Assembly: GCA_964537265.1 (NCBI GenBank)
Contig: CAZHZE010000009.1
Span: 1 to 31,025 of the forward strand
DNA from: an uncultured Gammaproteobacteria bacterium
GTDB lineage: Bacteria > Patescibacteriota > Patescibacteriia > Patescibacteriales > GWC2-42-12
Reading direction: 5' to 3'
Length of the DNA stretch: 31,025 nucleotides
The notes under the pieces are model-generated. The model had not been told where the DNA came from, did no database searches, and saw only the letters and a program-made list of their open reading frames with translations. This document shows positions 3,087 to 30,773 of the stretch, piece by piece (positions within the stretch are counted from its first letter, which is position 1; each line of letters begins with the position of its first letter). The position numbers were made by a program, and so were the translations under genes.

Positions 3087-3143
3087 AAATAAAACACAAA
3101 ATGGTTAAAATTTACTTAACCGGCTAAAAATAGTATGCAACTT

Positions 3144-3284
3144 TTATTTGGTTAATTTTTTTCTGCCTTTAGCTCTTCTTCTTCTTATTACATTGCGTCC
3201 ATTTTTTGTTTGCATTCTTTTTCTAAAACCATGTTTCTTTTTAGCTCTTCTTTTGTTTGGTTGGTAAGTTCTTTTTGTTGACAT
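3144..3284 (-). CDS. rpmH: 50S ribosomal protein L34
   Basis: I translated this myself from the minus strand: [46 protein letters not shown], 46 aa. It matches the L34 consensus (KRTYQP..KR...HGFR.RM.T..GR.V...RR.KGR) and is absent from the ORF track because it is under 60 aa. Confidence 0.88.
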
Positions 3285-3486
3285 AAAATTATTTACCCTA
3301 TTAAAAATTTCTCTTGTTAAAAATTTAATACTGAAAAATTATTCAACAGGGGAATATACTTAATAAAAAAATAAATATTTAGATTTATCTCAAATAAAAC
3401 ATAACATTTTAACTTTTTAAAGTCAAACAAAAAAAATTTATTAGGCTAATTTTTACTATAAAACTATAAAAAATTTTTTCCACCAT

Positions 3487-3495
3487 TTATTCACA
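3487..3495 (+). promoter_or_regulatory. DnaA-box-like 9-mer TTATTCACA, 8/9 match to TTATCCACA, in the rpmH-dnaA divergent intergenic region
   Basis: The sequence ttattcaca lies about 145 nt upstream of the dnaA start. It is the only near-consensus box I see in this 353-nt spacer. Confidence 0.3.
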
Positions 3496-3637
3496 ACTTG
3501 TAAACACAATTGTCTATTTTATATTTATAATTTAGCTGTTATAATGCCTATTGCAATAAGTTCTTCAATTGTTTAATATTAATTTTATATTATTTTGTTA
3601 TATAAAAAATTAACATAAATCATAATTTTCTCATGCT

Positions 3638-4984
3638 ATGAATAATGAGCAACTTTGGCAAGCCGTTTTAGGTGAAATTGAATTAAGTTTATCTAAAGCC
3701 AACTTCACCACCTGGTTTAAAAACACTTTTATTTCTTCTATTGAAAACAGCCGGGCAATTATTTGTGTGCCAAACACTTTTACTAAGGCTTGGTTAGAAA
3801 AAAAATACCACAAAGAAATATGTGGCGCCTTTAAAAATGTTGGCTCAGCAGAAATTAAAGAAATTATTTATAAAGTTGAGGCTAAAAAAGAATTGGTTTC
3901 GGATAATTTAATAAAAAAATTTAAAAACGAAAGTGTTGTTGAAATAAAACCGAAAACTCTTAACCGCTTTGGTCTTAATAATCGATATATTTTTGAAAAT
4001 TTTATTGTGGGAAAAAATAATGAATTAGCCCATGCAGCCTGCCAGGCGGTTTCAGCCAACCCAGGCCATGCTTATAATCCTCTTTTTATTTATGGCGGGG
4101 TTGGGTTGGGAAAAACTCATCTCTTGCAAGCTATCGGCCACGAATTATCTAAAAAAACCGATAAAATTTTATATGTTTCTTCTGAAAAATTTACAAACGA
4201 CTATGTCCACGCAGTTAGAAATGGCCAAGCCAAAGAATTTAAAGATCATTATCGAAATGTTGATTTATTGCTAATTGATGATATTCATTTCATGGGCGGC
4301 AAAGATGGAACTCAAGAAGAATTCTTCCATACTTTTAACGAATTACACCAAACTAATAAACAAATAGTAATTTCTTCTGACCGACCGCCTAAAGCTATAC
4401 CGGCCTTAGAAAAAAGATTGCTTTCCCGCTTTGAATGGGGGATGATAGCCGATATAGGCTCTCCGGATTTAGAAACTAGAATAGCCATTTTAGAAACTAA
4501 ATGTCGAGAAAAAAATTATAAATTAGAAAGAGAAATTTTGGCTTACATTGCTAATAATATCACTAATAATATCCGCGAATTAGAAGGAGCTTTAAATCGC
4601 TTAATCGCTTATTACGAATTTAATAATTCTTTGCCTTCCTTAGACTCTACTAAAAGTATTTTAGCTGGCATAATCTCTAATTTTCAATCTAAATCAACTA
4701 CGCCTAAAACCATTATTGAAGCGGCGGCCAGGTTTTTTGATATTAATGTTAAAGATTTGATCGGCCAAAGCAGAAAAAAAGAATTAGTCGTGCCCAGACA
4801 AATTGTTATGTATTTAATGCGCAAAGAAATTAACGCCTCTTATCCATCTATCGGCCAAGAGTTGGGCGGACGAGACCATACTACAGCTATGCACGCATTT
4901 AATAAAATTGAACGCGAATCACAAGAGGATGAAAAAATAAAACAACACATAGATTCTATAAAACAAGTTCTTTATAGTAGTTAA
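3638..4984 (+). CDS. dnaA: chromosomal replication initiator protein DnaA
   Basis: The 448-aa product has the Walker A motif GGVGLGKTHL, Walker B LLIDDIHF and a sensor region. The C-terminal DNA-binding domain includes VPRQIVMYLMRK...HTTAMHA. Divergent from rpmH and followed by dnaN. Confidence 0.95.
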   Translation: MNNEQLWQAVLGEIELSLSKANFTTWFKNTFISSIENSRAIICVPNTFTKAWLEKKYHKEICGAFKNVGSAEIKEIIYKVEAKKELVSDNLIKKFKNESVVEIKPKTLNRFGLNNRYIFENFIVGKNNELAHAACQAVSANPGHAYNPLFIYGGVGLGKTHLLQAIGHELSKKTDKILYVSSEKFTNDYVHAVRNGQAKEFKDHYRNVDLLLIDDIHFMGGKDGTQEEFFHTFNELHQTNKQIVISSDRPPKAIPALEKRLLSRFEWGMIADIGSPDLETRIAILETKCREKNYKLEREILAYIANNITNNIRELEGALNRLIAYYEFNNSLPSLDSTKSILAGIISNFQSKSTTPKTIIEAAARFFDINVKDLIGQSRKKELVVPRQIVMYLMRKEINASYPSIGQELGGRDHTTAMHAFNKIERESQEDEKIKQHIDSIKQVLYSS

Positions 4985-9651: not shown

Positions 9652-10059
9652 ATGAAAAAATCATTATTTAAAAAAGCAGTATTATTGGCCATGTCCGTTT
9701 TTGTTTTAATGCCTGTTTTAACTTTTGCTTTGCCGGTTGCAGCCGAAGATTTAAATCCTTGGGGCACTGACACTTTAAAAGAGAATGTTCAAAGCGAAAC
9801 AGGTTTAGGAGACAGAGATCCTCGCGATATCGCTGCTTCAGTGATTCGTGTTATTTTAGGATTTTTAGGCATTGTGGCCGTAATTATAATTTTATTAGGT
9901 GGTTTTAAATGGATGACTGCCGGCGGCAACGAAGATAAAGTTGGTGAAGCTAAAAAATTAATCATGGCCGGTGTTATCGGCTTGGTAATTATTGTGGCGT
10001 CTTTCGCTATTGCTACTTTTGTTTTAGATTCATTAATTAGTGCTACCAGCCAAAGTTAA
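9652..10059 (+). CDS. small secreted/membrane pilin-like protein (T4SS-pilin/TrbC-VirB2-like family expanded in CPR), paralog 1
   Basis: The 135-aa product has a signal peptide and a variable N-terminal segment. Its conserved C-terminal block is ILGFLGIVAVIIILLGGFKWMTAGGNEDKVGEAKKLIMAGVIGLVIIVASFAIATFV, a two-TM hairpin motif shared by nine ORFs in this window. Confidence 0.8.
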   Translation: MKKSLFKKAVLLAMSVFVLMPVLTFALPVAAEDLNPWGTDTLKENVQSETGLGDRDPRDIAASVIRVILGFLGIVAVIIILLGGFKWMTAGGNEDKVGEAKKLIMAGVIGLVIIVASFAIATFVLDSLISATSQS

Positions 10060-10063
10060 TATT

Positions 10064-10081
10064 CTTAATACCGGTATTAAG
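10064..10081 (+). terminator. perfect palindrome cttaataccggtattaag immediately after the paralog 1 stop
   Basis: A 9-bp stem hairpin starts 5 nt after the stop codon. There is no strong T-run, so terminator function is uncertain. Confidence 0.4.
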
Positions 10082-10195
10082 AGCCTGTTTGGAAAGTTCA
10101 TTTCTACTGCAATTTTAAAATTTTGGCATAATTTTAAAAAAATTCTATCCCAAATTTTAAAATTTCGTTGCGAAAGCAACTTTTCAAACAGGCTC
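10081..10195. repeat. structured intergenic element, copy A: 18-nt inverted repeat gagcctgtttggaaagtt / aacttttcaaacaggctc enclosing a 79-nt core
   Basis: The arms are complementary except for one G-T pair. The core begins catttctactgcaattttaaaatttt and ends aaatttcgttgcgaaagc. These core ends are shared with copy B at 29295..29453. Confidence 0.6.
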
Positions 10196-10288
10196 TTGAA
10201 AAAGTGGTGCCCGATTTTTCGGGACCACTGCCATAACCAGGAGTTTAAATTCATGTTTATGGCAGTGAGTTTATAAAAAATAAATAAT

Positions 10289-10726
10289 ATGTTTATCGCA
10301 AAATATCAAAAATTTATTATTTTTAGTTTGTTAATTTTCTTTTCTTTGTTTATGATAGCTCAAGTTGTTTCGGCCGCAATTTACGACCCGGCTGATCCGG
10401 TTGGAACTTCTGGTTTACAAGACACAGCCACTAAAGCGAAGCTGCCTACTAATGATGTTGATCCGTCTGCTTTAATTGGCAGAGTGGTTGGTTACGCATT
10501 ATCTTTTTTGGGTGTGGCTTTTTTTATTCTAATTATTTACGCCGGTTATTTATGGATGTTTTCTATGGGCAATGAACAAACCGTAACAAAAGCCAAAGAA
10601 ATAATTATTGCTGCTGTAATTGGTTTAATAATAGTTTTAATGGCTTATGCTATTACTTCTTACATTGGAGAAGTTTTACAACAAAAATCTTCTAATAGCA
10701 ACACGCAGCAACCAGCCACACCGTAA
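10289..10726 (+). CDS. pilin-like protein, paralog 2
   Basis: The 145-aa product has a signal peptide and the conserved block LSFLGVAFFILIIYAGYLWMFSMGNEQTVTKAKEIIIAAVIGLIIVLMAYAIT. Confidence 0.8.
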   Translation: MFIAKYQKFIIFSLLIFFSLFMIAQVVSAAIYDPADPVGTSGLQDTATKAKLPTNDVDPSALIGRVVGYALSFLGVAFFILIIYAGYLWMFSMGNEQTVTKAKEIIIAAVIGLIIVLMAYAITSYIGEVLQQKSSNSNTQQPATP

Positions 10727-10733
10727 AAAATTT

Positions 10734-11111
10734 ATGAAAAGAATTTTACATTTTTTATCGATTTTTATTGTATTGAGTATTTTTATATTTAATATAAATT
10801 TAATTAATTCTTCAGCCGCATCTTTTAGTGATGGTTTAAAAACAACTGGCGGAAAGATTGGTTATCCTGAAACTGGTCTAGATACATTTTTACCAGCTAC
10901 TATTGGTCAAATCATATCTTTGTCATTAGGATTTTTAGGCGTAGCTTTTTTAGGTATAATGATTTACGCCGGCTATTTGTGGATGATGGCGCGCGGCAAC
11001 GAGCAGGATGTAGAAAAAGCCAAAAATATTATAATTTATGCGGTTATTGGCTTGGTGGTGGTTTTATCCGCCTATGCCATAACCTTAATAATAGGAACTT
11101 TATGGACATAA
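10734..11111 (+). CDS. pilin-like protein, paralog 3
   Basis: The start was reassigned to the ATG at 10734 (MKRILHFL...), since the tracked ORF at 10647 overlaps paralog 2. The conserved block is LGFLGVAFLGIMIYAGYLWMMARGNEQDVEKAKNIIIYAVIGLVVVLSAYAIT. Confidence 0.75.
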   Translation: MKRILHFLSIFIVLSIFIFNINLINSSAASFSDGLKTTGGKIGYPETGLDTFLPATIGQIISLSLGFLGVAFLGIMIYAGYLWMMARGNEQDVEKAKNIIIYAVIGLVVVLSAYAITLIIGTLWT

Positions 11112-11548
11112 AAATAAATTTAAAAAGTAAAAAATTTTTATTATTATTTTTGATTTTATTATTTGGTTTTTTTAGTTTTTCTTTTTGTTTGGCTGATACT
11201 TCGAGCCAAAATTTAAATGATGCTTTTGGCAAACCATTGGAGGACGCGGCAAAAGGAGCTGGTTATGATCAAAGTCAAAAAGATATAACCTCGATAATTT
11301 CTATCATAATTAATTTGGCCTTAAGTTTTTTAGGCGTGATTTTTTTAGGTTTAATGATTTATGGCGGCTATTATTGGATGACGGCTAGGGGTGAAGAAGA
11401 AAAAGTTACTAAAGCTAAAGATACAATTACCAGGGCTATTGTCGGGCTAGTTATTGTTGTTGCCGCTTATGCTATTAGCGTTTTTGTTGTAAATAGCATA
11501 GAATCTAAGACGTTAAAAAATGAACAGCAAAAAGCGCAAATTAAATAA
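11102..11548 (+). CDS. pilin-like protein, paralog 4
   Basis: The start was reassigned to the ATG at 11102 (MDIKINLKSKKF..., a signal/TM segment), which overlaps the paralog 3 stop by 10 nt. The conserved block is LSFLGVIFLGLMIYGGYYWMTARGEEEKVTKAKDTITRAIVGLVIVVAAYAIS. Confidence 0.7.
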   Translation: MDIKINLKSKKFLLLFLILLFGFFSFSFCLADTSSQNLNDAFGKPLEDAAKGAGYDQSQKDITSIISIIINLALSFLGVIFLGLMIYGGYYWMTARGEEEKVTKAKDTITRAIVGLVIVVAAYAISVFVVNSIESKTLKNEQQKAQIK

Positions 11549-11573
11549 CGTAGATAATAAATAAAATAAAAAA

Positions 11574-11960
11574 ATGAATAAATATTTTAAAAAAGTTATA
11601 ATTTTAAGCTGTTTAATAATTTTTTTAGTCGTACCTTTTTTTGCTAACGCGGCTTTACCGTCAGAAAAATTAAAGGTTGTGGGAGAAGGCTCATACACCA
11701 CGGCCGATGAGAAAACTTTAGCAAAAATTATTGGAACTGTTATTCAAGCATTTTTAGGAGTTTTAGGCGTTGTCTTTTTAGCTTTAATGGTTTATGCAGG
11801 ATATTTATGGATGACCGCTAGAGGCGAAGAAGAAAAAGTTACTAAAGCTAAAGATACAATAATGAGAGCGGTTATCGGCTTAATTATAGTAATTGGCTCT
11901 TATGCTATTACTTATTTTGTAGTTGAAAATTTAGTAATTAGCAGTTCAGTTTTTAAATAA
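11574..11960 (+). CDS. pilin-like protein, paralog 5
   Basis: The 128-aa product has the conserved block FLGVLGVVFLALMVYAGYLWMTARGEEEKVTKAKDTIMRAVIGLIIVIGSYAIT. It shares a 35-nt identical DNA tract with paralog 4. Confidence 0.8.
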   Translation: MNKYFKKVIILSCLIIFLVVPFFANAALPSEKLKVVGEGSYTTADEKTLAKIIGTVIQAFLGVLGVVFLALMVYAGYLWMTARGEEEKVTKAKDTIMRAVIGLIIVIGSYAITYFVVENLVISSSVFK

Positions 11961-11965
11961 AAAAT

Positions 11966-12403
11966 ATGCTAAAAAAATATTTTAAAAAAATCACGTTATT
12001 GGTATTTTTATTTTTATTGCTTTTTAATTTTTATTTAGTTCAAACAATTAATGCTAGTACGCAAATTGATATGCAGCTGCAATTGCAAACTGCCGCTAAA
12101 CCATCTTGGGGAGAGCAAGTACCAATTGGAAATAGCAGTTTGGGCGGTATTGTCGCTAAAATAATTCAAGCCTTTTTAGGTTTATTAGGAATTATATTTT
12201 TAGTTTTAATAATTTATGCCGGTTTTCTTTGGATGACGGCGCAGGGTGATGAAGAAAAAGTTAAAAAAGCCAAAGAAATTTTACAACGAGCTGTTATTGG
12301 TTTAGTTATAATTGTTTCGGCTTATGCCATAACTTATTTTGTGTTTAGTAATTTACCTGGTGGAACGGGAAGTAGCAGCGGGGGCGGTTCAATGCCTTAT
12401 TAA
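11966..12403 (+). CDS. pilin-like protein, paralog 6, with a Gly/Ser-rich C-terminal tail
   Basis: The 145-aa product has the conserved block FLGLLGIIFLVLIIYAGFLWMTAQGDEEKVKKAKEILQRAVIGLVIIVSAYAIT, followed by the tail PGGTGSSSGGGSMPY. Confidence 0.8.
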   Translation: MLKKYFKKITLLVFLFLLLFNFYLVQTINASTQIDMQLQLQTAAKPSWGEQVPIGNSSLGGIVAKIIQAFLGLLGIIFLVLIIYAGFLWMTAQGDEEKVKKAKEILQRAVIGLVIIVSAYAITYFVFSNLPGGTGSSSGGGSMPY

Positions 12404-12418
12404 AATTTATAAATAAAT

Positions 12419-12459
12419 AGAGCGCCAGCTTAAAAGCATGGCGCTCTTTTGTTTTTTTT
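12419..12459. terminator. bidirectional rho-independent terminator between convergent genes
   Basis: The stem agagcgcc / ggcgctct (8 bp) has a 13-nt loop, an A-run before it and a long T-run after it. It overlaps the stop codon of the minus-strand lipoprotein gene. Confidence 0.75.
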
Positions 12460-13042
12460 AATCTCCAAACAACTTAACTCCTCCATGGTAATTTTTTTGT
12501 GTTTCAAGATCGTAGTAGTGAGGGGCTGTGGTCACATTAAAACTTGCCGGGCCATTTTCTGGAAAAATAGAATTATTATTTTCTATAATCCATGTGTAGG
12601 CATAGTAACCAGCCGGCAATTTAAATACAGCCTTCTCTTTTGGGGTTAATAAAATTTCAACACGTTGTCCATTCATAAATCCGCCAATTTTTGTGACTGT
12701 TATAGTTTTTTTCCGCCTACTATCATTAAAAAATAGACATTCAAATCCGCCAAGCACCCCGTCTTTACTTATTGTGGAGGCCGTAGTTGTTTGTTCATTT
12801 AATGACTTTCCTTGAATTTCAGCGATAGCAACTTTACCCCACTCGGTTTGTATGGCTTGAGTTATTCTTTCGTTTTCTATTCCCGTTATCGCGGTTTCTT
12901 TACCTAGGTTATTTTTTGCCACGATAAAGCCTTCAGAACTTCTGTAAACACTAGGACTTACCGCATATGGTAGAATTGAAGCGCAGCCATAAAAAACATA
13001 CAAAAATCCTAACAACAAAACTACAAAAGTAATTTTTTTCAT
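12458..13042 (-). CDS. putative lipoprotein of unknown function
   Basis: The 194-aa product has a signal peptide ending ...LYVFYGCAS, a lipobox-like Cys, and a beta-rich body with no recognised domain. Confidence 0.6.
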   Translation of the reverse strand: MKKITFVVLLLGFLYVFYGCASILPYAVSPSVYRSSEGFIVAKNNLGKETAITGIENERITQAIQTEWGKVAIAEIQGKSLNEQTTTASTISKDGVLGGFECLFFNDSRRKKTITVTKIGGFMNGQRVEILLTPKEKAVFKLPAGYYAYTWIIENNNSIFPENGPASFNVTTAPHYYDLETQKNYHGGVKLFGD

Positions 13043-13259: not shown

Positions 13260-13811
13260 ATGGAAGCTTTAAAAAACAACTACAATAAAATAATTACGCT
13301 AAAACAAGCCAAAAAAGTTATTATTTTTTTGGTATTTGTCTTTTTCTTTGAATTTTTATTATTCCCTGCGCCAACGTTGGCTAGTGAAATTGACGAAAAT
13401 ACTAATATTAGCCAAGAAGAAATTATTATTTTTAACGACAATCAAACCCAAGGAGTTGAAATTATAGAATTTAATGGAAAATTGCCAGAAAGCGGAGATG
13501 CTGATATAGATTTTTCTCGCCATGTAGTTATTACCGCTTATAATTCAGAGATCGGCCAAACAGATAATTCTCCATGTATTACAGCTAACGGGTTTAATGT
13601 TTGTGAAAATGGAGTCGAGGATACAATAGCAGCTAATTTTTTAACCTTTGGAACAAAAGTTAAAATACCAGCCCTTTTCGGAGATAGGGTTTTTGTTGTG
13701 AGAGACAGAATGAATAAGAGGTTTTCTGATAGAGTTGATGTTTGGATGATAAATAAGCAAGATGCGGTTAAATTCGGCGTAAAAGTAGCCAAAATAGAGG
13801 TTCTAGAATAA
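13260..13811 (+). CDS. 3D-domain protein (MltA-like / YuiC-like cell-wall-binding or lytic protein)
   Basis: The 183-aa product has an N-terminal TM/signal. Its C-terminus (VVITAYNSEIGQTDNSPCITANGFNV...FGTKVKIPALFGDRVFVVRDRMNKRFSDRVDVWM) matches the 3D domain pattern TAY...G.T.SG...GT.V.IP..G...V.DTG..I.G.R.DV. Confidence 0.65.
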   Translation: MEALKNNYNKIITLKQAKKVIIFLVFVFFFEFLLFPAPTLASEIDENTNISQEEIIIFNDNQTQGVEIIEFNGKLPESGDADIDFSRHVVITAYNSEIGQTDNSPCITANGFNVCENGVEDTIAANFLTFGTKVKIPALFGDRVFVVRDRMNKRFSDRVDVWMINKQDAVKFGVKVAKIEVLE

Positions 13812-16810: not shown

Positions 16811-16811
16811 G

Positions 16812-16883
16812 TGGACAGTACAGGACTTGAACCTGTAACCCCTGCGATGTAAACGCAGTGCTCTACCATTGAGCTAACTGTCC
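16812..16883 (-). tRNA. tRNA-Val(TAC)
   Basis: The reverse complement reads GGACAGT TA GCTC AATGGTA GAGC A CTGCG TTTACAT CGCAG GGGTT ACAGG TTCAAGT CCTGT ACTGTCC A. Confidence 0.85.
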
Positions 16884-16891
16884 GCGACTAG

Positions 16892-16975
16892 TGCCGAGGA
16901 CAGGACTTGAACCTGCAAGGAGTTGCCTCCACCAGCACCTCAAGCTGGCGCGTATACCAATTCCGCCACCTCGGC
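16892..16975 (-). tRNA. tRNA-Leu(GAG), long variable arm
   Basis: The reverse complement reads GCCGAGG TG GCGG AATTGGTATA CGCG CCAGC TTGAGGT GCTGG, then a variable arm TGGAGGCAACTCC, then TTGCAGG TTCAAGT CCTGTCC TCGGC A. The discriminator is A73. Confidence 0.85.
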
Positions 16976-20172: not shown

Positions 20173-21621
20173 TTAAAATATTTTAAAATCATCTTCACTG
20201 ATGCTTTTAGATAAATATAGTCCGATACAATAAATTAAGGCTGCTAATAAAACCGTATATATCAAGTTAATTTTAGGCGCTAAAAAATAAACGCCAATAC
20301 CCATAATCAAAGAAATAATAAGAGATTTAAAAAATATTGTAAAATTAGGCCTAAAATTAGCATATTTAAATATAATATAAAAAGAAAAAAGCATGATAGC
20401 TAATTCACTATAAACAGTCACCCAAGCGGCTCCATAATATGAAAAACGAGGGATAAAAATTAAATAGCCAACCAATGAAGTTATGGCGGTAAAAACATAA
20501 GCCGCAATAACATTTTTTTGTTTATCTAAGGCTATAACTGCATGTGCGAACAAACAGCCGATAAAAATAAAACCTATGGCCAAAATTAATATTTTTAAAA
20601 TTTCTCCTGATTGGGCAAAATTTTCTCCAGCTATTAAAATCATCAGCGGCTTAGCTGTAAAAATTGCTCCAATAATCAAGGGCATGGCTAACATTATCAT
20701 GGCATCCAAAGATTTTTGTAGAACCAGATTAAATTTAAATAAATTTTTATTATTCCATTCCATGGTTAATATCGGCAGGATCAGGCCAGCAAACATAAAA
20801 GGTATAGCAGTTAAAACATCGATTATTTTATAAGTAGCGCCGTAAAGCCCGACATCGGTTTGGGTTTTTAATAAAGATAAAATAAAGATATCCGCCCTTA
20901 GATAAATTAAATTAAAAAAAATGGTTAAGCCTAACGGCCAGGATTTTTTAATAATTTCTCGCCAGATATTTAAATCAATTTCCCAGCTGATTTTAATAAA
21001 ACGGCGAGAAAATAAATAATGCATAATAAAGCTGACAAAACTTGAGGCGACAGTGGCTATCATAATGCTTAATAAACCAGTATTAAAATAAACTGTAGCC
21101 ATAACCCCAATTAATAGAACTAAACGGCTAACTATTTCGGCCATGGCCACAACCGTCATGGTTAAATTTTTTTGGAAAAAGCCGACTAGAATTTGATTTA
21201 AAGCCATGAAAAAATAAGATAAGACAGTAACCGTTACGCCAATTTTAATAATTGGCTCATAAGGAAAAAATAAAACGATCAAAGGAGCTAGGCCTAAAAA
21301 AAAGATTGCGGAGATTAAACGTAAAGTAAAAAGATTATTTAATAATGAAGTTTGATTATTGCCCGGCTGGCTAATCATTTGCGTAGTTATTAGGGTTAGC
21401 CCAAAATCAGCTATAATGCCAAAAAACGATAAAAAAGTGATAATGGTAGTATATTGGCCAAAGCCAACCTCTTTTAAATATCTGGCCATAATCGCTATAG
21501 TGGCTAGACCTAAGACGGTTCCGACGGCTTTACCGATTATTTGAACAATGGTATTATATGCTACCATAGAAGAAAGTTTTTTTTCCACCCCGTTAGAAAT
21601 TTTATTTATTTTTTGCTCCAT
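20173..21621 (-). CDS. polysaccharide/oligosaccharide flippase (Wzx-like, MOP superfamily)
   Basis: The 482-aa product is a polytopic membrane protein with about 12-14 TM segments and the size and topology of Wzx/MOP exporters. Confidence 0.65.
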   Translation of the reverse strand: MEQKINKISNGVEKKLSSMVAYNTIVQIIGKAVGTVLGLATIAIMARYLKEVGFGQYTTIITFLSFFGIIADFGLTLITTQMISQPGNNQTSLLNNLFTLRLISAIFFLGLAPLIVLFFPYEPIIKIGVTVTVLSYFFMALNQILVGFFQKNLTMTVVAMAEIVSRLVLLIGVMATVYFNTGLLSIMIATVASSFVSFIMHYLFSRRFIKISWEIDLNIWREIIKKSWPLGLTIFFNLIYLRADIFILSLLKTQTDVGLYGATYKIIDVLTAIPFMFAGLILPILTMEWNNKNLFKFNLVLQKSLDAMIMLAMPLIIGAIFTAKPLMILIAGENFAQSGEILKILILAIGFIFIGCLFAHAVIALDKQKNVIAAYVFTAITSLVGYLIFIPRFSYYGAAWVTVYSELAIMLFSFYIIFKYANFRPNFTIFFKSLIISLIMGIGVYFLAPKINLIYTVLLAALIYCIGLYLSKSISEDDFKIF

Positions 21622-21895
21622 AGTAATATTTCAAACGATTTTTTAAATATTTTTTGCCCATGCCGCTTTTTAAATACTTTTCTCTAAAAAAAGCATCGTA
21701 TTTATTATATGATGATTCAAAATATATAAGTTTGAATGGTCTCCTGTTTTTAGTCGCGAACACTTTACCATCGTTATGTTCCTTTGTTCTTTTAGTTATA
21801 TTGTTTGTACAGCCAGTATACCATAGTTTGTCTTTTAAACTTTCTAAAACATAAACGTACCACAATATTTTTTGTAAATTTCTAACGGGGTCCAT
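21602..21895 (-). CDS. GIY-YIG nuclease-domain protein
   Basis: The 97-aa product has WYVYVLES...KLWYTGCTNNITKRTKEHN, which matches the GIY-YIG motif pair followed by a conserved Arg/Glu. It overlaps the flippase start by 20 nt. Confidence 0.7.
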   Translation of the reverse strand: MDPVRNLQKILWYVYVLESLKDKLWYTGCTNNITKRTKEHNDGKVFATKNRRPFKLIYFESSYNKYDAFFREKYLKSGMGKKYLKNRLKYYYGAKNK

Positions 21896-21958: not shown

Positions 21959-22402
21959 ATGTTTATGACTAAAAAGATTTTTAACTATGTTCTAAGCATT
22001 GTTTTTTTGTCCATGTGTCTAACCTTAATTCCGGCAAGTTTTGATTTTCAGCCGGTAAACCAAACTAAAGCTGCTGGTTGGTGGGATACGGTAAATAATA
22101 ACGAATTCAAACAAGTTGGTTCTGTTTATGGCAATAACACAACCAAGGATATAAGAATGGTAGTGGTAGATATTATAAAAAAAATTCTAGGTCTTTTAGG
22201 AGTTATAGCTTTAGTGATTATTTTATATGCCGGTTTTAAATGGATGACATCGGCTGGCAACGAAGAAACTATTACTTCCGCCAAAAAGACTTTAATCGCC
22301 GGCTTGATTGGTTTAGCTATTATTTTATTCTCTTATGCTATAGCCACTTTTGTTATAAAATATTTATCTGCCGCCAGTACTGGCCAGCAAGTAATTTGGT
22401 AA
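21959..22402 (+). CDS. pilin-like protein, paralog 7
   Basis: The 147-aa product has a signal peptide and the conserved block ILGLLGVIALVIILYAGFKWMTSAGNEETITSAKKTLIAGLIGLAIILFSYAIATFV. Confidence 0.8.
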   Translation: MFMTKKIFNYVLSIVFLSMCLTLIPASFDFQPVNQTKAAGWWDTVNNNEFKQVGSVYGNNTTKDIRMVVVDIIKKILGLLGVIALVIILYAGFKWMTSAGNEETITSAKKTLIAGLIGLAIILFSYAIATFVIKYLSAASTGQQVIW

Positions 22403-22438
22403 TAATGCTAATATATAAATTAATTTATAAATAAAATT

Positions 22439-22864
22439 ATGCAACAAAACATTTTTCAAAAAATCGTTTTAGCGACAATGATTTTTGCAGCTCTCACTTT
22501 GATTATGCTGCCAGTTTCTAAAACTATGGCCCTAGAAGCAGATGATTATTGGGGTGGCACTGAACAACGCCAGTATGTTGACCAAAACTCTGGTTTAGCC
22601 GGAGGGGAAACAGCCAGGGATCCTCGCTTAGTGGTGGTAGACGTAATAAAAACTATCTTAGGTTTTTTAGGTGTTATAGCTTTAGTGATTATTTTATATG
22701 CCGGTTTTAGATGGATGACTGCCGGCGGAAATGAAGAAAACGTTTCAACGGCTAAAAAAATATTAATTTCAGCTTTAATCGGTTTAGTTATTATTTTATC
22801 TTCCTACGCTTTAGCTACTTTTGTTTTAGATCAAATGGTAAAAGCTATTTCAGGAAATAGTTAA
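22439..22864 (+). CDS. pilin-like protein, paralog 8
   Basis: The 141-aa product has the block ILGFLGVIALVIILYAGFRWMTAGGNEENVSTAKKILISALIGLVIILSSYALATFV. A 47-nt tract is identical in 46 of 47 positions to paralog 7. Its N-terminal RDPR motif is shared with paralog 1. Confidence 0.8.
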   Translation: MQQNIFQKIVLATMIFAALTLIMLPVSKTMALEADDYWGGTEQRQYVDQNSGLAGGETARDPRLVVVDVIKTILGFLGVIALVIILYAGFRWMTAGGNEENVSTAKKILISALIGLVIILSSYALATFVLDQMVKAISGNS

Positions 22865-24809: not shown

Positions 24810-25181
24810 ATGAAAAATGACAATGCAAAGTTTAAAGTGGAATTTAAAAAACGCATTTATAATTGGGTTTTACAATTAATTAAATTTATTGATAAGTTAT
24901 CTAGAGATTCTGTTTGTTCAGTTATGAGTAAACAGTTGCTAAGAAGTGGCACTAGCGTATTAGCTAATTATATTGAAGCTAATTCAGCCAGTTCTAAAAA
25001 AGATTTTATTAATTTTTTTACTCATTCATTGAAATCAGCTAATGAATCAAAAGTTTGGCTATGTCTTTTAAGAGATACTAATAAAGGAGACAAAAAAGAA
25101 TTAGAATGGCTTTTAAATGAATTAGTGGAAATAGCCAATATTATTGCTTCAAGTATTCTAACTTTAAAGGGTAAAAAATAA
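24810..25181 (+). CDS. four-helix-bundle protein (family often encoded in 23S rRNA intervening sequences)
   Basis: The 123-aa product is all-helical and includes QLLRSGTSVLANYIEA and FFTHSLKSANESKVWL, typical of this family. Confidence 0.6.
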   Translation: MKNDNAKFKVEFKKRIYNWVLQLIKFIDKLSRDSVCSVMSKQLLRSGTSVLANYIEANSASSKKDFINFFTHSLKSANESKVWLCLLRDTNKGDKKELEWLLNELVEIANIIASSILTLKGKK

Positions 25182-25240
25182 TAATTTTTTATTTTAAATT
25201 GTCATTTTTAATTTTGAGATTTACATTTTACATTATAAAA

Positions 25241-25268
25241 AACACGGCTTTACCGTGTTTTTTATGTT
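25241..25268. terminator. bidirectional intrinsic terminator
   Basis: The sequence is aaaaa acacgg cttt accgtgt ttttt, lying between convergent genes. Confidence 0.7.
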
Positions 25269-25294
25269 ACGAGTTATGGGTTGCGAACTGTGAG

Positions 25295-25726
25295 TTATGA
25301 AGTCATCGCCGTTAAGACAAGTTTTACTAGGGCATATGAGCTAAAGATAATAAATAGGCCAACTGCTGCCCAGATTAAAATATTTTTTCCTTTAGTTACT
25401 TGTTCTTGGTTGCCGGCTGATAACATCCAAATAATACCGCCGTAGATAAACATTACTAAGGCCAATGAACCGATAACTCCCATAATAGCATTAATAACAT
25501 TGCCTAGAAGAGTTGGTATATCGGTTTTACCTTGACCCAGGGGGTTGTCGAGGGGGACGGCGCCGGAGGTTCCTGGGGCAATAGGTTCACAACCATCCTG
25601 ACACTTAGTGGTACCAGGAATAAATGAAGTGTCGCTACCCTCGGCGCACCAGCAATCAGCAGCAAATGAATAATTAGCTAATACGAATGAAGAAAGTATA
25701 ATTGTAAAAAATATTATTTTTTTCAT
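25295..25726 (-). CDS. pilin-like protein, paralog 9, with a cysteine-rich N-terminal module
   Basis: The 143-aa product has a signal peptide, then CWCAEGSDTSFIPGTTKCQDGCEP with four Cys. The conserved block is IMGVIGSLALVMFIYGGIIWMLSAGNQEQVTKGKNILIWAAVGLFIIFSSYALV. Confidence 0.8.
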   Translation of the reverse strand: MKKIIFFTIILSSFVLANYSFAADCWCAEGSDTSFIPGTTKCQDGCEPIAPGTSGAVPLDNPLGQGKTDIPTLLGNVINAIMGVIGSLALVMFIYGGIIWMLSAGNQEQVTKGKNILIWAAVGLFIIFSSYALVKLVLTAMTS

Positions 25727-25750
25727 ATTGTTTTTAAATTATATATTTAT

Positions 25751-25778
25751 ATAATATAATTTTTTAAAGTTTTAGTCA
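25751..25778 (-). promoter_or_regulatory. candidate promoter for paralog 9 (minus strand: TTGACT-16-TATTAT)
   Basis: On the plus strand, agtcaa at 25773-78 and ataata at 25751-56. The start codon is at 25726. Confidence 0.4.
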
Positions 25779-25780
25779 AT

Positions 25781-25813
25781 TAAAAAGAGCGGAAAGTAAA
25801 AAATTTCCGCTCT
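25781..25813 (-). terminator. intrinsic terminator for the upstream minus-strand operon
   Basis: The stem agagcggaaa / tttccgctct (10 bp) has an 8-nt loop and is followed on the minus strand by a T-run (plus-strand aaaaa at 25781-85). Confidence 0.7.
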
Positions 25814-25852
25814 TGTGTTTAACTTTAACAAAGTTTTTCACCCCGTACTTTT

Positions 25853-26689
25853 TCATACAGAGGGAAGAAACTGTATTGTTATTTGTCCTCCTTTTTTGTA
25901 TTTAAGGTTAAGTTCGTTAGCCCTTTCATTCGTTAAAATTACTCCCTGTGGTTTTATAACAAGTTGCGTTGAATCATCAACACGAGGAGCTTGGATTTCG
26001 TTTTTAGGCGCACCAGTGACGATATATCGCTGCTTTATTTTTAACTCCGTGATTGTTATAACTTCATCAGTATAAAAGTATACTTTCCAGGTTTCTCCGC
26101 TCTTATCCTTTAATTTTACTATGGAGAATTTTCCTGGAACAATATCACCGGCGTCTATCCAATAGAACATAGATGTTTCTACCCAAATTTTTTTATCAGA
26201 AGGAAAAATGCCATTTTCTTTTGGCAACATTATTTCTGTGTAAGCAATCCTCTGAACAATTTTGGATTTTTCTTCCGGCCTGACCTGTAAAACCGTATTT
26301 CCGGCATTAAGATAGTATTTATCCCAGCCCTTGTTTTGAGCTTGTTCAAAACCTTTTCTCGTCTGCCAGTAGAAACGATCTACCTTAGCTTTCGCTATAC
26401 CATAACTTCCTGCCGCCGCCGCTTCTGTTTTCAACGCTTGATTTGACCATCCGCGACCCTTAAGATCGGCGGTAGCGTTGAAGTTTCTTTTTGCGCTTTT
26501 TATATTTTGCCATCCCAATAAACCGAACACGATAAATAGGATAAGAAGCGCAAAACAAATTTTGGAAAATGTGATTTTTTTAAATTTTTCGGGCATTTTA
26601 GGCAAGCCAAATTTCGCTTTGTTTTCTTCTTCTTTTGGTTCGCCACCTAGTAATTTAAGCTTTTTTTCCTTTTTCTTTTCCGGTGCCAT
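25853..26689 (-). CDS. membrane-anchored protein of unknown function, operon partner of the SPFH protein (possible NfeD-like role)
   Basis: The 278-aa product has a Lys/Glu-rich N-terminus, one TM (ICFALLILFIVFGLLGW) and a beta-rich extracytoplasmic domain. It overlaps the SPFH gene end by 35 nt; an alternative start is the Met at 26596. Confidence 0.55.
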   Translation of the reverse strand: MAPEKKKEKKLKLLGGEPKEEENKAKFGLPKMPEKFKKITFSKICFALLILFIVFGLLGWQNIKSAKRNFNATADLKGRGWSNQALKTEAAAAGSYGIAKAKVDRFYWQTRKGFEQAQNKGWDKYYLNAGNTVLQVRPEEKSKIVQRIAYTEIMLPKENGIFPSDKKIWVETSMFYWIDAGDIVPGKFSIVKLKDKSGETWKVYFYTDEVITITELKIKQRYIVTGAPKNEIQAPRVDDSTQLVIKPQGVILTNERANELNLKYKKGGQITIQFLPSV

Positions 26690-27857
26690 CTTTTTTCACC
26701 TCCGCTGTTTTATCTTCTCCTAAAGATTGGTTTGTTAAATTCATGCCAGCAGCTAACTCAGCTCCCATTATAGGTGCCTCCGCTCCTTTACTGGCGATTA
26801 TTACACCCTTATTGTTTTTTATGGCTTCAAAATAGTTTTTGTTAAGTAGATATTGAGCAGCTGCCTTAGAATCAAGACCGGTAATATCCATTACTTTTTT
26901 AATTTCCTGGCCTATTGCTTCTCCTTCTACTGCTTGTTGGATTCTCTTTGCTTCCGCTGTTTTTTTAGCCGTTTCAATAGCAATTTCTGCTGCATCTCTT
27001 TCTTTTTCAGCAATAATGATTTTATCCCTTTGTTCTCGTATTTCCGGCGGCACAGCAATGTCAGTCACGGCGATACTTTCAATTTCGACTCCCCAGACTT
27101 TGAATTTATCAGCATCAGTATCTTTCTGGGTAATGATTGCATCAGCATTAGTATCGGATTTAGTTTCAATGGCTTTATCTAATTCCATTGTTCCATAATA
27201 AGCTCTAATGCCAGAATCAGTTTTTTCTCTAATGCCTTTAAATAAATTATCAATTTCGAAAGTTGCTCTGTGAGAGCCGTAGATACGGAAGAATATTTCA
27301 GCCGTAACAGCAGAAGTGGTGTTTTTGAAATTAATTGCCGCTTCTTTTATTCCATCTCTTTCGGTGCCATCCATATATAGTCTTAAACTCTGTGTATACA
27401 TGGGCACTTTTGCTTTAATGAACATAAAGAATGGAAATTTGATATGTAGGCCTGGCTCCCATGTTGTGAACCACTTACCAAACAATAAGATAATCCACTC
27501 TTCATTTTGTTCAACCTCATTCCAGCCGTTACGTATTACTAGAATGTTTAAAGCAATTGGAATAACAAAAAGAATTAGTAATTGGAGTATCCAAGATGGC
27601 CAAATAAAGAAACTAATACCGCTTAGGATAAACCCGGTTAAAATAGTTACAACAAATAACCCAAACCATAAAACGGGCGAGATTATTGCCGCTTCTTTTT
27701 GTTTTTCCTTTTTTTCTAATAAACAGTTGGTTTTAGCATGCTCCCGCTGTTTTTCTTCCACGCGTTTTATTTCTGTTTGTTCATCTGTTGTACCCTCTCT
27801 TTTTTTTAACTTCTTTATCTTTTCCCAAAAATTTTTTAATCCTTTCATTTTCTTCAC
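26655..27857 (-). CDS. SPFH/band-7 (stomatin/prohibitin/flotillin-like) domain membrane protein
   Basis: The 400-aa product has two N-terminal TMs. Its SPFH core (WNEVEQNEEWIILLFGKW...EPGLHIKFPF...VPMYTQSLRL) is followed by a long charged helical region with an AEA/EAK-rich repeat. Confidence 0.75.
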   Translation of the reverse strand: MKKMKGLKNFWEKIKKLKKREGTTDEQTEIKRVEEKQREHAKTNCLLEKKEKQKEAAIISPVLWFGLFVVTILTGFILSGISFFIWPSWILQLLILFVIPIALNILVIRNGWNEVEQNEEWIILLFGKWFTTWEPGLHIKFPFFMFIKAKVPMYTQSLRLYMDGTERDGIKEAAINFKNTTSAVTAEIFFRIYGSHRATFEIDNLFKGIREKTDSGIRAYYGTMELDKAIETKSDTNADAIITQKDTDADKFKVWGVEIESIAVTDIAVPPEIREQRDKIIIAEKERDAAEIAIETAKKTAEAKRIQQAVEGEAIGQEIKKVMDITGLDSKAAAQYLLNKNYFEAIKNNKGVIIASKGAEAPIMGAELAAGMNLTNQSLGEDKTAEVKKDGTGKEKGKKA

Positions 27858-28124
27858 CCTTTCCTTTCATTATATTTTTATTTTATTTTTTGTTTATTTA
27901 TTCGATTGTCAAAGTGCAACAATCGAACCTTCATATTTCCCTCTTGGTTTATCTAAAAATAGACAAACCAAGAGGGAAGAAAAAGGCTCGATTTTTATTC
28001 TATTTGGCACATAAATACCAAAAGAACTAATTTATTATAATAGCATAAAATTAAAAAAAAGTCAACTATTTTATAATAATTAACTTTTTTATTGCTAAAA
28101 TTAGGTAAATATAATTAAAAAACC

Positions 28125-28814
28125 TCACCCCAACCCTCTCCTTGTTAATGAGAGGGATTTTTTACTATTCCTTTCTCGCCATTCCTGTATTTTTTTATGA
28201 TTACCAGATAAAAGTACTTTTGGTACTTGGTATTTTTTATTATTAGTTTGAAAAATTTCCGGCCGCGTATATTGCGGATGCTCTAAAATTCCTGGCTTAG
28301 CATGCGATTCATATTTTGCGCTATCGGCATTGCCTAAGGCACCAGGTAATAATCTGGTGATAGAATCTACAATTGCCATAGCGCCAATTTCGCCGCCGGT
28401 TAAAACATAATCGCCGATAGAAATTTCTTCATCAATAAATTTAGCAATTCTTTCATCAACGCCTTCGTAGCGGCCGCAAATTAAAATAATATCATTTAAT
28501 TTAGTGTGTGACTTAGCTAGTTGTTGATTCCAAGTTTTACCTTTTGCAGAAAGAAGAATAATTTTTATTTTTTTATTTTTAATTTTTGATTTAATATTTT
28601 TTATAGCTTTATATAACGGTTCAATTTTCATAACCATGCCAGCGCCGCCGCCGAAGGGCGTGTCGTCTACGGTTTTATGTTTGTCGATTGTCCAATCGCG
28701 TAAGTTATAAATTTTAATGTTGATTAATTTATTTTTTTGCGCGCGCTTAAGAATACTCTCATTAAAATAAGAGTCAAAGATTTTAGGAAAAATTGTAATA
28801 ATGTGAAAAGTCAT
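28125..28814 (-). CDS. trmD: tRNA (guanine37-N1)-methyltransferase
   Basis: The 229-aa product has the SPOUT-fold motifs IITIFPKIF, DDTPFGGGAGMVMK and GRYEGVDERI. Confidence 0.9.
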   Translation of the reverse strand: MTFHIITIFPKIFDSYFNESILKRAQKNKLINIKIYNLRDWTIDKHKTVDDTPFGGGAGMVMKIEPLYKAIKNIKSKIKNKKIKIILLSAKGKTWNQQLAKSHTKLNDIILICGRYEGVDERIAKFIDEEISIGDYVLTGGEIGAMAIVDSITRLLPGALGNADSAKYESHAKPGILEHPQYTRPEIFQTNNKKYQVPKVLLSGNHKKIQEWRERNSKKSLSLTRRGLG

Positions 28815-28876
28815 AAATTTATTCTAATAAAAAAACCACATTGGTTTGTGGTTTTTTTATTTATATCTAATTAAAT

Positions 28877-29962: not shown

Positions 29963-30037
29963 TGGAGCGGGTAGCGGGAATCGAACCCGCCTCTCGACCT
30001 TGGAAGGGTCGCATAAAAGCCACTATACTATACCCGC
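29963..30037 (-). tRNA. tRNA-Gly(TCC) with encoded CCA
   Basis: The reverse complement reads GCGGGTA TA GTAT AGTGGC.. CGACC CTTCCAA GGTCG AGAG GCGGG TTCGATT CCCGC TACCCGC T CCA. The discriminator is U73. Confidence 0.8.
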
Positions 30038-30044
30038 CTTTGCT

Positions 30045-30195
30045 TTTATTATCGCAAAAGCTACGGCGGGCAAGCCCGCTTATTATGGCGGCTTGCACTA
30101 CGTAGCCTTGGCGAAGTAGTGTCGGGCTGCTCACGAATTGAAGGGGCGGAAGCCCCACGCCGACACGCTGATTTCGGCAAGCCCAACAACCTAAC
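30045..30195. ncRNA. GC-rich structured RNA candidate between tRNA-Gly and tRNA-Pro; identity and strand unresolved (SRP-RNA-like long hairpin is one hypothesis)
   Basis: The GC-rich core of about 140 nt contrasts sharply with the AT-rich flanks. It contains nested helices: gctacg...cgtagc, gcgggc-aa-gcccgc, gtgtcgg...ccgacac, and ggggc-GGAA-gcccc. The minus-strand reading contains GAGCAGCC, reminiscent of the SRP helix 8 motif, but the fit to SRP is imperfect. Tracked ORFs at 29940..30197 and 30061..30264 overlap tRNAs and are rejected. Confidence 0.35.
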
Positions 30196-30232
30196 AAAAA
30201 ATTCTAAAGTCGCAAGGACTTTATAATTTTTG

Positions 30233-30303
30233 TCGGGCTGCTGGGAATTGAACCCAGTCAACATGCTCCCAAAGCATGCGTACTACCGGTATACGACAGC
30301 CCG
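30233..30303 (-). tRNA. tRNA-Pro(TGG)
   Basis: The reverse complement reads CGGGCTG TC GTAT ACCGGTA GTAC G CATGC TTTGGGA GCATG TTGA CTGGG TTCAATT CCCAG CAGCCCG A. The C1:G72 pair and A73 are typical of bacterial tRNA-Pro. Confidence 0.8.
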
Positions 30304-30325
30304 GATTCAATTACTAATTGAAATG

Positions 30326-30397
30326 TGCCGGGGGTGAGAATCGGACTCACGACACAATGATTTTCAGTCATTTGCTCTACCACTGAGCTACCCCGGC
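30326..30397 (-). tRNA. tRNA-Phe(GAA)
   Basis: The reverse complement reads GCCGGGG TA GCTC AGTGGTA GAGC A AATGA CTGAAAA TCATT GTGTC GTGAG TCCGATT CTCAC CCCCGGC A. Confidence 0.85.
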
Positions 30398-30491
30398 AAA
30401 TTAGTCATAAAGTTAAAAGTTGAAAGTTAGAAAGTAGAAAATTTAAATCAAAACTTTTTAACTTTATACTTTTAACTTTTAACTATCTTTG

Positions 30492-30564
30492 TTGCGGGGG
30501 CCGGATTTGAACCGGCGACCTCCAGGTTATGGGCCTGGCGAGCTGCCAACTGCTCTACCCCGCG
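30492..30564 (-). tRNA. initiator tRNA-fMet(CAT)
   Basis: The reverse complement reads CGCGGGG TA GAGC AGTTGGCA GCTC G CCAGG CCCATAA CCTGG AGGTC GCCGG TTCAAAT CCGGC CCCCGCA A. It has the C1xA72 mismatch and A11:U24. Its acceptor and T arms are nearly identical to E. coli tRNAfMet as I recall it. Position 33 in the anticodon loop is C rather than U. Confidence 0.8.
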
Positions 30565-30699
30565 TCGCTTTGCGAAATTTTTAATTTCCAATTTTTAATT
30601 TTTAAATAAATTATAATTTTCAATGTTTGAAATATTGAAAATTAAAGCATTAAAAATTGTTTAAAAATTTAAAATTATAAAATTTAAAAATTATCCGAG

Positions 30700-30773
30700 T
30701 GGGCAACGGGGGAATCGAACCTCCGACCTCCACATTATCAGTGTGGCGCTCTAACCATCTGAGCTAGTTGCCC
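30700..30773 (-). tRNA. tRNA-Ile(GAT)
   Basis: The reverse complement reads GGGCAAC TA GCTC AGATGGTTA GAGC G CCACA CTGATAA TGTGG AGGTC GGAGG TTCGATT CCCCC GTTGCCC A. This is the typical rRNA-spacer tRNA. Confidence 0.85.

Follow-up and report, generated by a model that had tools for sequence, protein, structure and literature searches.

Tandem arrays of divergent VirB2-type pilin genes have been described in the Patescibacteria, in which type IV secretion systems (T4SSs) centred on VirB4 are widespread. Quinonero-Coronel et al. (2025; PMC12102498) searched 3,035 genomes of this group with the models PF18895 and PF04956; in 383 assemblies they recorded 441 VirB2 arrays (2-11 genes; mean identity 25%). 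According to the available part of their report, pilin genes lie near virB4 in 1,135 of 1,948 assemblies, T4SS genes are often found near dnaA, dnaN and rnpA in most classes and near comF, recG and radA rather than dnaA in ABY1, almost no relaxases occur, the systems are assigned to mating-pair formation class FATA (MPF-FATA), the arrays are read as host-range or antigenic versatility, and an origin by co-option from diderm systems is left undecided. A review (PMC12857230, 2025) restates the arrays. In Southlakia epibionticum ML1, Wang et al. (2023, Cell; PMC10633639) described an essential series of predicted pilin genes within SEML1_0006-0019, a T4SS cluster; few functions other than this T4SS and its pilins have been shown to be essential to epibiosis in a cultivated Patescibacterium. 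In this report, we analyse a stretch of DNA of 31,025 bp (the window, an entire NCBI contig with a GC content of ~31%) that carries nine such genes, P1 to P9, six of them in one tandem array, and we show that this array is ancient and collinear, that its first gene stands apart in translation signal and evolutionary rate, and that a conserved structured RNA follows genes of the P1 type.

The window contains rnpA, yidD, yidC, dnaA (3638-4984), dnaN and a class A penicillin-binding protein (PBP) gene, with ribosomal protein genes and nine tRNAs further along, and therefore represents a chromosomal origin region. Beyond this contig, look-ups of its exact proteins yielded only short Logan contigs. 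Its DnaA is 84-91% identical to that of metagenome-assembled genomes titled Patescibacteria, Parcubacteria group or Candidatus Falkowbacteria, and we take the host lineage to be GTDB class ABY1 (Falkowbacteria-like). The nine open reading frames (ORFs) listed in an earlier note on this DNA were recovered at the same positions (Table 1), with the small correction that P3 has 125 amino acids (aa), where the claimed size range began at 126. Six of the genes form a tandem run (9652-12403) and two a pair (21959-22864), and both groups count as arrays under the definition of PMC12102498 (at least two PF18895/PF04956 pilin genes, adjacent or with a single non-pilin gene between them). Like the arrays described there, they are chromosomal tandem arrays of highly divergent pilins matched by the same Pfam models; the earlier description of nine copies as remarkable was overstated, because arrays of 2-11 genes, and the proximity of T4SS genes to dnaA, had already been published (PMC12102498, PMC10633639). 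The window locus is an already described kind of locus in a new lineage: by the available account, arrays are most abundant in Microgenomatia and Saccharimonadia, whereas this one is Falkowbacteria-like, and arrays of the window type are not within reach of virB4, unlike the family-level pattern. S. epibionticum likewise has about six sequence-divergent but structurally similar VirB2-like pilins near the replication origin of a monoderm Patescibacterium; there, however, they sit with VirB4, VirB3, VirB6 and cell-wall hydrolases and are essential by transposon sequencing (Tn-seq), whereas the contig analysed here carries no such machinery. The virB2 arrays of Bartonella and Anaplasma phagocytophilum, as cited in PMC12102498, are also tandem and divergent, with a proposed role in surface variation, but they belong to diderm pathogens that target host cells and lie inside virB operons, whereas the window array has a conserved orthologue order and asymmetric expression signals. 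In the available part of PMC12102498 no mention was found of positional orthology, unequal rates, asymmetry of Shine-Dalgarno (SD) sites or a 3' RNA element, and the lead-pilin asymmetry, the P1-type RNA element and a link to a Mycoplasma family described below are, as far as the literature searched and Rfam show, undescribed.

We assigned the nine proteins by profile searches. All of them exceed the gathering score of PF18895 (T4SS_pilin; 26.6 bits), with 32.9-53.5 bits, and this domain is also present in all 62 P9-type homologues and in the listed homologues of P1; the database has ~1,600 homologues of P1, some of which NCBI names 'pilin'. The TrbC/VirB2 model PF04956 is matched at E<=1e-3 by 49 of the 62 P9-type homologues. 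NF045849 of NCBIfam matches all nine (E 1e-4 to 5e-12), P5 and P6 (45.2 bits each) above its equivalog cut-off of 40 bits and the other seven (21.7-39.6 bits) below it; this 80-position model covers the same two-helix block and describes the Mbov_0395/MMCAP2_0565 family from the integrative and conjugative elements (ICEs) of Mycoplasma, a wall-less monoderm. Mycoplasma ICEs are classed as MPF-FATA, and the Mbov_0395-family protein is carried on an ICE and, as far as is known, in a single copy; a search for literature on what it does found none. The NF045849 link hints that the pilins of Patescibacteria could have come with machinery of the monoderm type. When aligned by hhalign with six real VirB2 and TrbC/VirB2-family sequences from annotated plasmid records (two of them annotated as virB2), the P1 family matched in register with P = 4e-5 and a probability of 70%, and the P9 family, also in register, with P = 4.5e-4 and a probability of 33%, the motif common to the two sides being DP...I.G..G...W-M (DP...ILGxxG...WM). 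Together with the topology, these results bear out the TrbC/VirB2-like T4SS-pilin assignment made in the earlier note, and they support the view that all nine are genes for pilin subunits of the VirB2/TrbC type that are exported by the Sec pathway and belong to the Patescibacteria family PF18895.

Hydropathy profiles revealed three hydrophobic segments per protein, a lysine-rich N-terminal signal peptide with an AxA-like site followed by two helices of transmembrane (TM) length. An AlphaFold2 model of P1 built on 61 sequences (mean predicted local distance difference test score, pLDDT, 80) places helices at residues 2-26, 57-89 and 94-133, with a turn of four residues between the last two and a pLDDT of 89-96 in this hairpin; the N-terminal part is of low confidence except for one short helix. 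Both analyses agree with the signal peptide and two-TM topology proposed before. We infer directly from the sequences that each protein starts with a signal peptide that can be cleaved off, followed by an extracellular N-terminal part that is specific to the paralogue and 25-50 aa long, two long hydrophobic helices joined by a tight charged turn (W-M-x-x-G-N/E-E-E ... K) that faces the cytoplasm, and a short extracellular C-terminal tail. With the N-terminal part and the tail outside and the turn inside, the mature protein would therefore be N-out/C-out in the membrane, and the variable N-terminal part and the tail are predicted to lie outside the cell irrespective of signal peptide cleavage. 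The TrbC/VirB2/TraA subunits of the T-pilus and F-pilus share the signal peptide, the two hydrophobic helices, a short basic or charged turn and a prepilin of ~120-145 aa. They differ in the mature N-terminal extension, which is ~10 aa in VirB2 versus 25-50 aa in the window pilins, and in the turn, which in the window pilins (G-N-E-E-x-V-x-K-A-K) is 5-7 residues longer than in VirB2; moreover, classical systems have one pilin gene beside virB1/virB3, whereas the window has an array in a monoderm host.

The type of signal peptide refutes, at the sequence level, an identity as type IV pilins. Subunits of a type IV pilus or competence pseudopilus (PilA/ComGC), processed by prepilin peptidase, would be conceivable in bacteria of the candidate phyla radiation (CPR), which possess type IV pili and competence systems, and small proteins with N-terminal hydrophobic segments would suit such a role. 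However, the class III signal peptide (G/F-T-L-x-E) occurs in none of the nine proteins, which have ordinary lysine-rich n-regions, h-regions and AxA-like sites instead, two further TM helices and no globular beta domain are predicted, and no type IV pilin family of Pfam is among the matches, so that we assign this explanation a negligible probability.

The fold is that of a generic hairpin: the best Foldseek match was ATP synthase subunit c at E = 0.58, and fold searches were uninformative. Such a hairpin could also be a membrane anchor or small-oligomer module that displays short peptides or, in some relatives, large domains at the cell surface, or another part of the envelope, acting independently of a T4SS. 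Such a role would agree with the lack of T4SS genes near the arrays of this lineage, with relatives that fuse the domain to large extracellular parts (one protein of 635 aa includes an Ig-like Big_5 domain; a separate ORF exceeds 2,500 aa) and with recurrent neighbours that are envelope genes (PBP1A, flippase, glycosyltransferases and solute-binding lipoproteins). We nevertheless consider it unlikely, given the probable homology to VirB2/TrbC and to the pilin-like conjugal transfer protein of Mycoplasma ICEs, the proximity of pilin genes to virB4 at the family level in the available part of PMC12102498, and the location of the S. epibionticum pilins within a T4SS cluster that is essential (PMC10633639).

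The nine pilins share nine invariant alignment columns (G73, G84, W87, M88, G92, K101, G110, L111 and A119 in P1 numbering), all within a block of 67 residues, and paralogues are 33-74% identical in the conserved block and 12-30% in the mature N-terminal part. Within the P1-like subgroup, the C-terminal block of P7 is 55% identical to that of P1 and 74% to that of P8, and the block of P8 is 59% identical to that of P1. The N-terminal segment had been described as divergent and 40-70 aa long; the divergence stands, but the length included a signal peptide of 26-31 aa, without which the mature variable part is ~25-50 aa. Variation is also not confined to the N terminus, as had been claimed: the C-terminal tails, 4-18 aa long, differ among paralogues too.

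We then compared the locus with its relatives, using 80 loci fetched from a genome scan with DnaA (relatives' loci carry L-numbers) and metagenome loci found via a sub-alignment of P4-P6 (A4). At least three pilin genes lie downstream of dnaA in 15 of the 80 loci, with 5-8 where the end of the locus does not cut the array, and in the close relatives examined the array sits between the PBP gene and a lipoprotein gene. P1 to P6 are collinear one-to-one orthologues in L005 and L007, judged by the N-terminal part and by the C-terminal block, and the order is kept down to ~76% DnaA identity, together with paralogue-specific N-terminal motifs (P1, DPWG...GLG..DPR; P3, SFSDGLKTTGG.IGY, or SFSDGLK.TG; P4, NLNDAF...GAGY, or NL.DAF...GAGY; P5, KL..VG). 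The six-gene array is thus ancient and collinear. The 10-nucleotide (nt) overlap of P3 and P4 reported earlier was confirmed at 11102-11111, and the equivalent pair overlaps by 16 nt in L005 and L007. P7, P8 and P9 occupy sites that are kept in the more distant relatives L084, L086 and L167, with a GIY-YIG/flippase block on one side of the P7/P8 site and a glycosidase/ROK kinase block on the other, and with trmD and rpsP adjoining the P9 site.

Evolutionary rates are very unequal. Relative to L005, with which the window shares 91% identity in DnaA and 78-93% in other neighbours, P2-P6 retain 38-58% identity in the N-terminal part and 70-88% in the C-terminal block (38% and 88%, respectively, in P2), and their tails are nearly unalignable; P1, the most conserved paralogue, is 75-79% identical to L004 and L005 in the N-terminal part (75% to L005) and 95% in the C-terminal block. 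At ~79% DNA identity, synonymous sites are probably saturated. P1 therefore evolves at a housekeeping-like rate, and P2-P6 much faster than neighbouring genes. Outside the array, P9 is 83% identical to its orthologue in L167 and P7 62% to its own, and P8 is 55% identical to its orthologue as the gene is called, or an estimated ~63% when the extra N-terminal extension of that gene is ignored.

These data bear on the diversified repertoire proposed in the earlier note, a reading that they match only in part: P2-P6 do evolve fast, and the paralogues are old and collinear, with one-to-one orthologues and motifs of their own. If the paralogues were interchangeable major pilins, each forming a homopolymeric filament for antigenic or host-range variation, order and paralogue-specific motifs would hardly be expected to persist to ~76% DnaA identity, and nothing in the array points to recent gene conversion or shuffling: the 192-nt DNA unit that encodes the C-terminal block occurs in six copies of just 61-74% identity. 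The genes differ greatly in their translation signals, an RNA element follows P1 only, and the essentiality of the S. epibionticum pilin series (PMC10633639) speaks against redundancy, although polar effects in the Tn-seq data are possible. We therefore regard an exchangeable repertoire as improbable, even though N-terminal parts and tails are unalignable between paralogues, P2-P6 outpace the flanking genes, copy number ranges from 5 to 14 genes among relatives with duplications of the P1 type, and an analogy with Bartonella and Anaplasma virB2 has been published (PMC12102498, in its available part).

The translation signals of the array are asymmetric. The SD site of P1, GGGAGGTGA, forms the strongest anti-SD duplex in the window (-15.9 kcal/mol), whereas the duplex is weaker than -7 kcal/mol in 31 of 34 window genes tested, rplS, rpsP and dnaA included, and the eight other pilin genes have no SD site (duplex energies of +2.1 to -4.2). 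The strong site is kept in the P1 orthologues of 12 of 13 related loci (-15.3 to -16.3), and where the P1 type is duplicated, both copies carry it. The only other strong sites belong to the lipoprotein gene at 12458-13042 (-11.2) and to a gene for a 278-aa membrane protein at 25853-26689 (-13.8); both of these non-pilin genes directly neighbour pilin genes. In addition, the largest gap in the array always follows the first gene (53-229 nt), and later gaps are mostly -16 to +60 nt in close relatives. Canonical hairpins with a GC stem and a T-run bracket P9, GAGCGGAAA...TTTCCGCTC upstream (25727-25852) and CACGGCTTTACCGTG downstream (25182-25294), and this gene is probably monocistronic with its own promoter.

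The gap behind P1 contains a conserved structured RNA. The P1-P2 intergenic region (10060-10288) folds at -80.6 kcal/mol (z = -9.6), and the element common to relatives comprises ~100 nt in three covarying hairpins, A, B and C, which occur after P1-type pilin genes only. Hairpin A is a palindrome, TTCTTAATACCGGTATTAAGAG, unique in the window, and at dnaA-anchored loci its sequence-conserved core is found only after P1-type genes; hairpin B has a GC-rich stem (GTGGTGCCCG/CGGGACCAC), and hairpin C shows double-sided changes in 12 of 15 pairs among 26 sequences. A covariance model detected 26 independent plus-strand instances in the fetched genome and metagenome DNA (the window, L004, L005, L007, L012, L016, L023, L062, L090, L092, L095, L097, L105, L107, L111, L112, L115, L117, L118, L127, L131, L134, L157 and L163) and no match elsewhere in this ~1.5 Mb. 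Each instance starts 0-19 nt past the stop codon of a P1-type gene, except in L127 (165 nt), which shares the long-hairpin insert of the window. In a MAFFT alignment of nine sequences (A3), compensatory changes were present in 15 of 28 pairs. The alignment of 26 sequences (A7) had 95% of cells paired, versus 43-53% with slid partners, and double-sided changes in 23 of 28 pairs, versus 5-9 in slid controls, and none of 500 shuffles reached the observed values. Among 4,227 Rfam models, only those for tRNAs reach gathering in the window, and at E<=1 the P1-P2 region yields only spurious hairpin matches of the microRNA-precursor type, far below gathering.

Two simpler identities for these hairpins were rejected. 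A pattern scan found no intrinsic terminator between P1 and P2; hairpins B and C have no U-tract, while P9 has stem-plus-T-run terminators, and the element is therefore not a canonical terminator. The 116-nt long hairpin between A and B, a lineage-specific insert in the form of a long imperfect palindrome, is probably a local hairpin expansion and not a miniature inverted-repeat transposable element or other mobile element, as it recurs only in L127 (about 333-493, ~160 nt), at the orthologous position; it is absent from L004, L005 and L007. In more distant relatives, the 3' arm of hairpin C stops 2 nt before the ATG of gene 2, so that it would occlude initiation there.

Our data suggest a model, which we favour with moderate confidence, whereby the six-gene operon encodes a fixed team of VirB2/TrbC-type subunits for a T4SS filament, an abundant P1 and specialised P2-P6, rather than a set of interchangeable variants, as the comparative anatomy of the array would indicate. 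By homology with conjugative pili, the hairpin subunits may be extracted from the membrane to polymerise as a filament on the cell surface, with the variable N-terminal parts and tails on its outside, and the motor may be a T4SS of the VirB4 type encoded elsewhere in the genome, as homology and the published family-level context would suggest. P1 would be the abundant lead subunit, judging from its unique strong ribosome-binding site and its housekeeping-like evolution; P2-P6, which are SD-less, tightly packed or overlapping and fast-evolving, would be lower-abundance specialised subunits, for example in priming, at the tip or in host contact. The three-hairpin RNA past the P1 stop codon may lower or uncouple the expression of P2-P6 and thereby set the ratio, by attenuation, by stabilising the P1 message at its 3' end or, in distant relatives, by blocking the start of gene 2. 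P7 and P8, which are P1-like, and P9, which is the most VirB2-like and monocistronic, may be separate, syntenically fixed members. In the pap and fim operons of chaperone-usher pili, the gene of a highly expressed lead subunit comes first, then an RNA stem-loop, and then specialised subunits that are expressed at a lower level; the likeness of the array to these operons, as to type IV pili and the pseudopili of type II secretion systems, would be one of regulation only, and folds and assembly machines are unrelated.

Several observations weigh against this model. The gathering score of PF04956 (27.9 bits) is reached by none of the nine proteins, the best being P5 with 22.9 bits (E = 9.8e-5), followed by P7 (21.1), P8 (19.4) and P4 (18.1), with no score for the others, and it is P9, not P1, that is the paralogue nearest to classical VirB2. 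Sequence-profile searches of the Protein Data Bank (alignments A1 and A2) detected no solved pilin structure, and to our knowledge no filament has ever been seen for the PF18895 family. Only signals in the sequence indicate the high abundance of P1 and the lower abundance of P2-P6, hairpins B and C are without the U-tract of a terminator, and alignment A7 was fitted to the model and thus favours structure, although the independent alignment A3 agreed. As for the machine, searches with Pfam and NCBIfam found no gene for VirB4, VirB3, VirB6, VirB1, VirD4 or TrsD on the 31-kb contig; within 10 kb of ~24 related arrays on long metagenome loci there was no P-loop ORF of at least 450 aa except translation GTPases; and the 80 dnaA loci contained no VirB4-like P-loop ORF, their few ATPases of 590-612 aa besides DnaA being GspE/PilB-like only by a guess made without a Pfam check. 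In close relatives, the 10 kb upstream of dnaA also contained no VirB4. The co-localised VirB4/VirB6/TraG genes raised in the earlier note are thus absent from the contig and from 10 kb on either side of related arrays, and the link to a machine therefore rests on homology.

The favoured model, if correct, provides several handles: P1-type pilins as the likely bulk subunit, P2-P6 as likely accessory, host-facing and fast-evolving subunits, and an RNA element that can be searched for. It is possible, and we propose it tentatively, that the ABY1-type array is a stoichiometrically controlled heteropolymer kit, in which an SD-marked lead pilin is held by a cis-acting RNA in a set ratio to at least five minor pilins. 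If true, both a major/minor-pilin architecture and a dedicated regulatory RNA would here be seen for the first time in a pilus of the T4SS type, and in a monoderm that encodes its secretion machine at a distance from the pilins.

Table 1. Pilin genes, signals and other features of the window
Feature	Positions	Strand	Remarks
P1, lead pilin of six-gene array, 135 aa	9652-10059	+	PF18895 35.9 bits
P2 pilin, 145 aa	10289-10726	+	PF18895 34.3 bits
P3 pilin, 125 aa, ATG at 10734	10734-11111	+	PF18895 40.1 bits
P4 pilin, 148 aa	11102-11548	+	PF18895 34.9 bits
P5 pilin, 128 aa	11574-11960	+	PF18895 39.1 bits; TrbC E = 9.8e-5
P6 pilin, 145 aa, Gly/Ser-rich C-terminal tail	11966-12403	+	PF18895 44.8 bits
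P7 pilin, 147 aa, P1-like subgroup	21959-22402	+	PF18895 35.8 bits
P8 pilin, 141 aa, P1-like subgroup (D.WG...RDPR motif in common)	22439-22864	+	PF18895 32.9 bits
P9 pilin, 143 aa, solitary, Cys-rich N-terminal part	25295-25726	-	PF18895 53.5 bits
SD site of P1	9640-9648	+	anti-SD duplex strongest in window
Hairpin A, palindrome	10062-10083	+	directly 3' of P1 stop codon
Long hairpin, lineage-specific 116-nt insert	10083-10198	+	inverted repeat I1, between hairpins A and B
Hairpin B, GC-rich stem	10204-10228	+	without U-tract; stem covaries in relatives
Hairpin C (CACTGCC...GGCAGTG)	10226-10267	+	inverted repeat I12
Predicted lipoprotein, lipobox FYGC	12458-13042	-	convergent to six-gene array
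tRNAs Val, Leu	16811-16975	-	adjoin tsaE/rplS
GIY-YIG nuclease gene	21602-21895	-	among pilin sites
'23S rRNA intervening sequence protein', free-standing, four-helix bundle	24810-25181	+	PF05635; among pilin sites
tRNA cluster Gly, Pro, Phe, Met, Ile	29963-30773	-	right end of contig

Several neighbours of the pilin genes recur in relatives. The slot of the lipoprotein gene is kept, and its product is only 19-26% identical beside neighbours of 78-93%, and is therefore hypervariable or replaced; no Pfam or NCBIfam family matched it. The neighbouring gene at 13260-13811 is also conserved, and a first guess that it encodes a VirB1-like cell-wall hydrolase with a 3D domain was dropped for lack of Pfam or NCBIfam support. 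In several relatives, a protein of 520-550 aa with 7-10 TM helices and an N-terminal 'DDPYYHA' motif, absent from the window, is encoded between the PBP gene and the array (L012 17211-18779; L090 5200-6771; L097 5511-7082; L117 804-2369; L158 3485-5056); it gave no Pfam match when tested from L090, and might, as a guess, be a glycosyltransferase of the GT-C type. In another lineage (L121, L123, L126, L132, L137, L142 and L159), a solute-binding lipoprotein of the ATP-binding cassette type, ~457-489 aa long, regularly precedes the arrays, and Pfam SBP_bac_1/8 was confirmed for those of L121 and L159. The fusions of the pilin domain to large extracellular parts come from other metagenome contigs (L156 978-2885 and 2939-10456; L121, L123 and L126), where arrays comprise up to 11-14 genes and the length of some 'pilins' is 200-380 aa.

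Elsewhere in the window, 550 nt at 3087-3637, between rnpA and dnaA, are without a listed ORF of at least 80 aa and probably contain rpmH and/or the replication origin. The block from P9 through the gene for the 278-aa protein and an SPFH gene to trmD (25308-28831) is 92% identical to L167 at the DNA level, versus ~74-85% for most other aligned blocks, for which recent exchange, strong constraint and an artefact of assembly are possible reasons; its 400-aa SPFH protein is 100% identical between the two. The GIY-YIG gene reappears at differing positions in the relatives L086 and L167.

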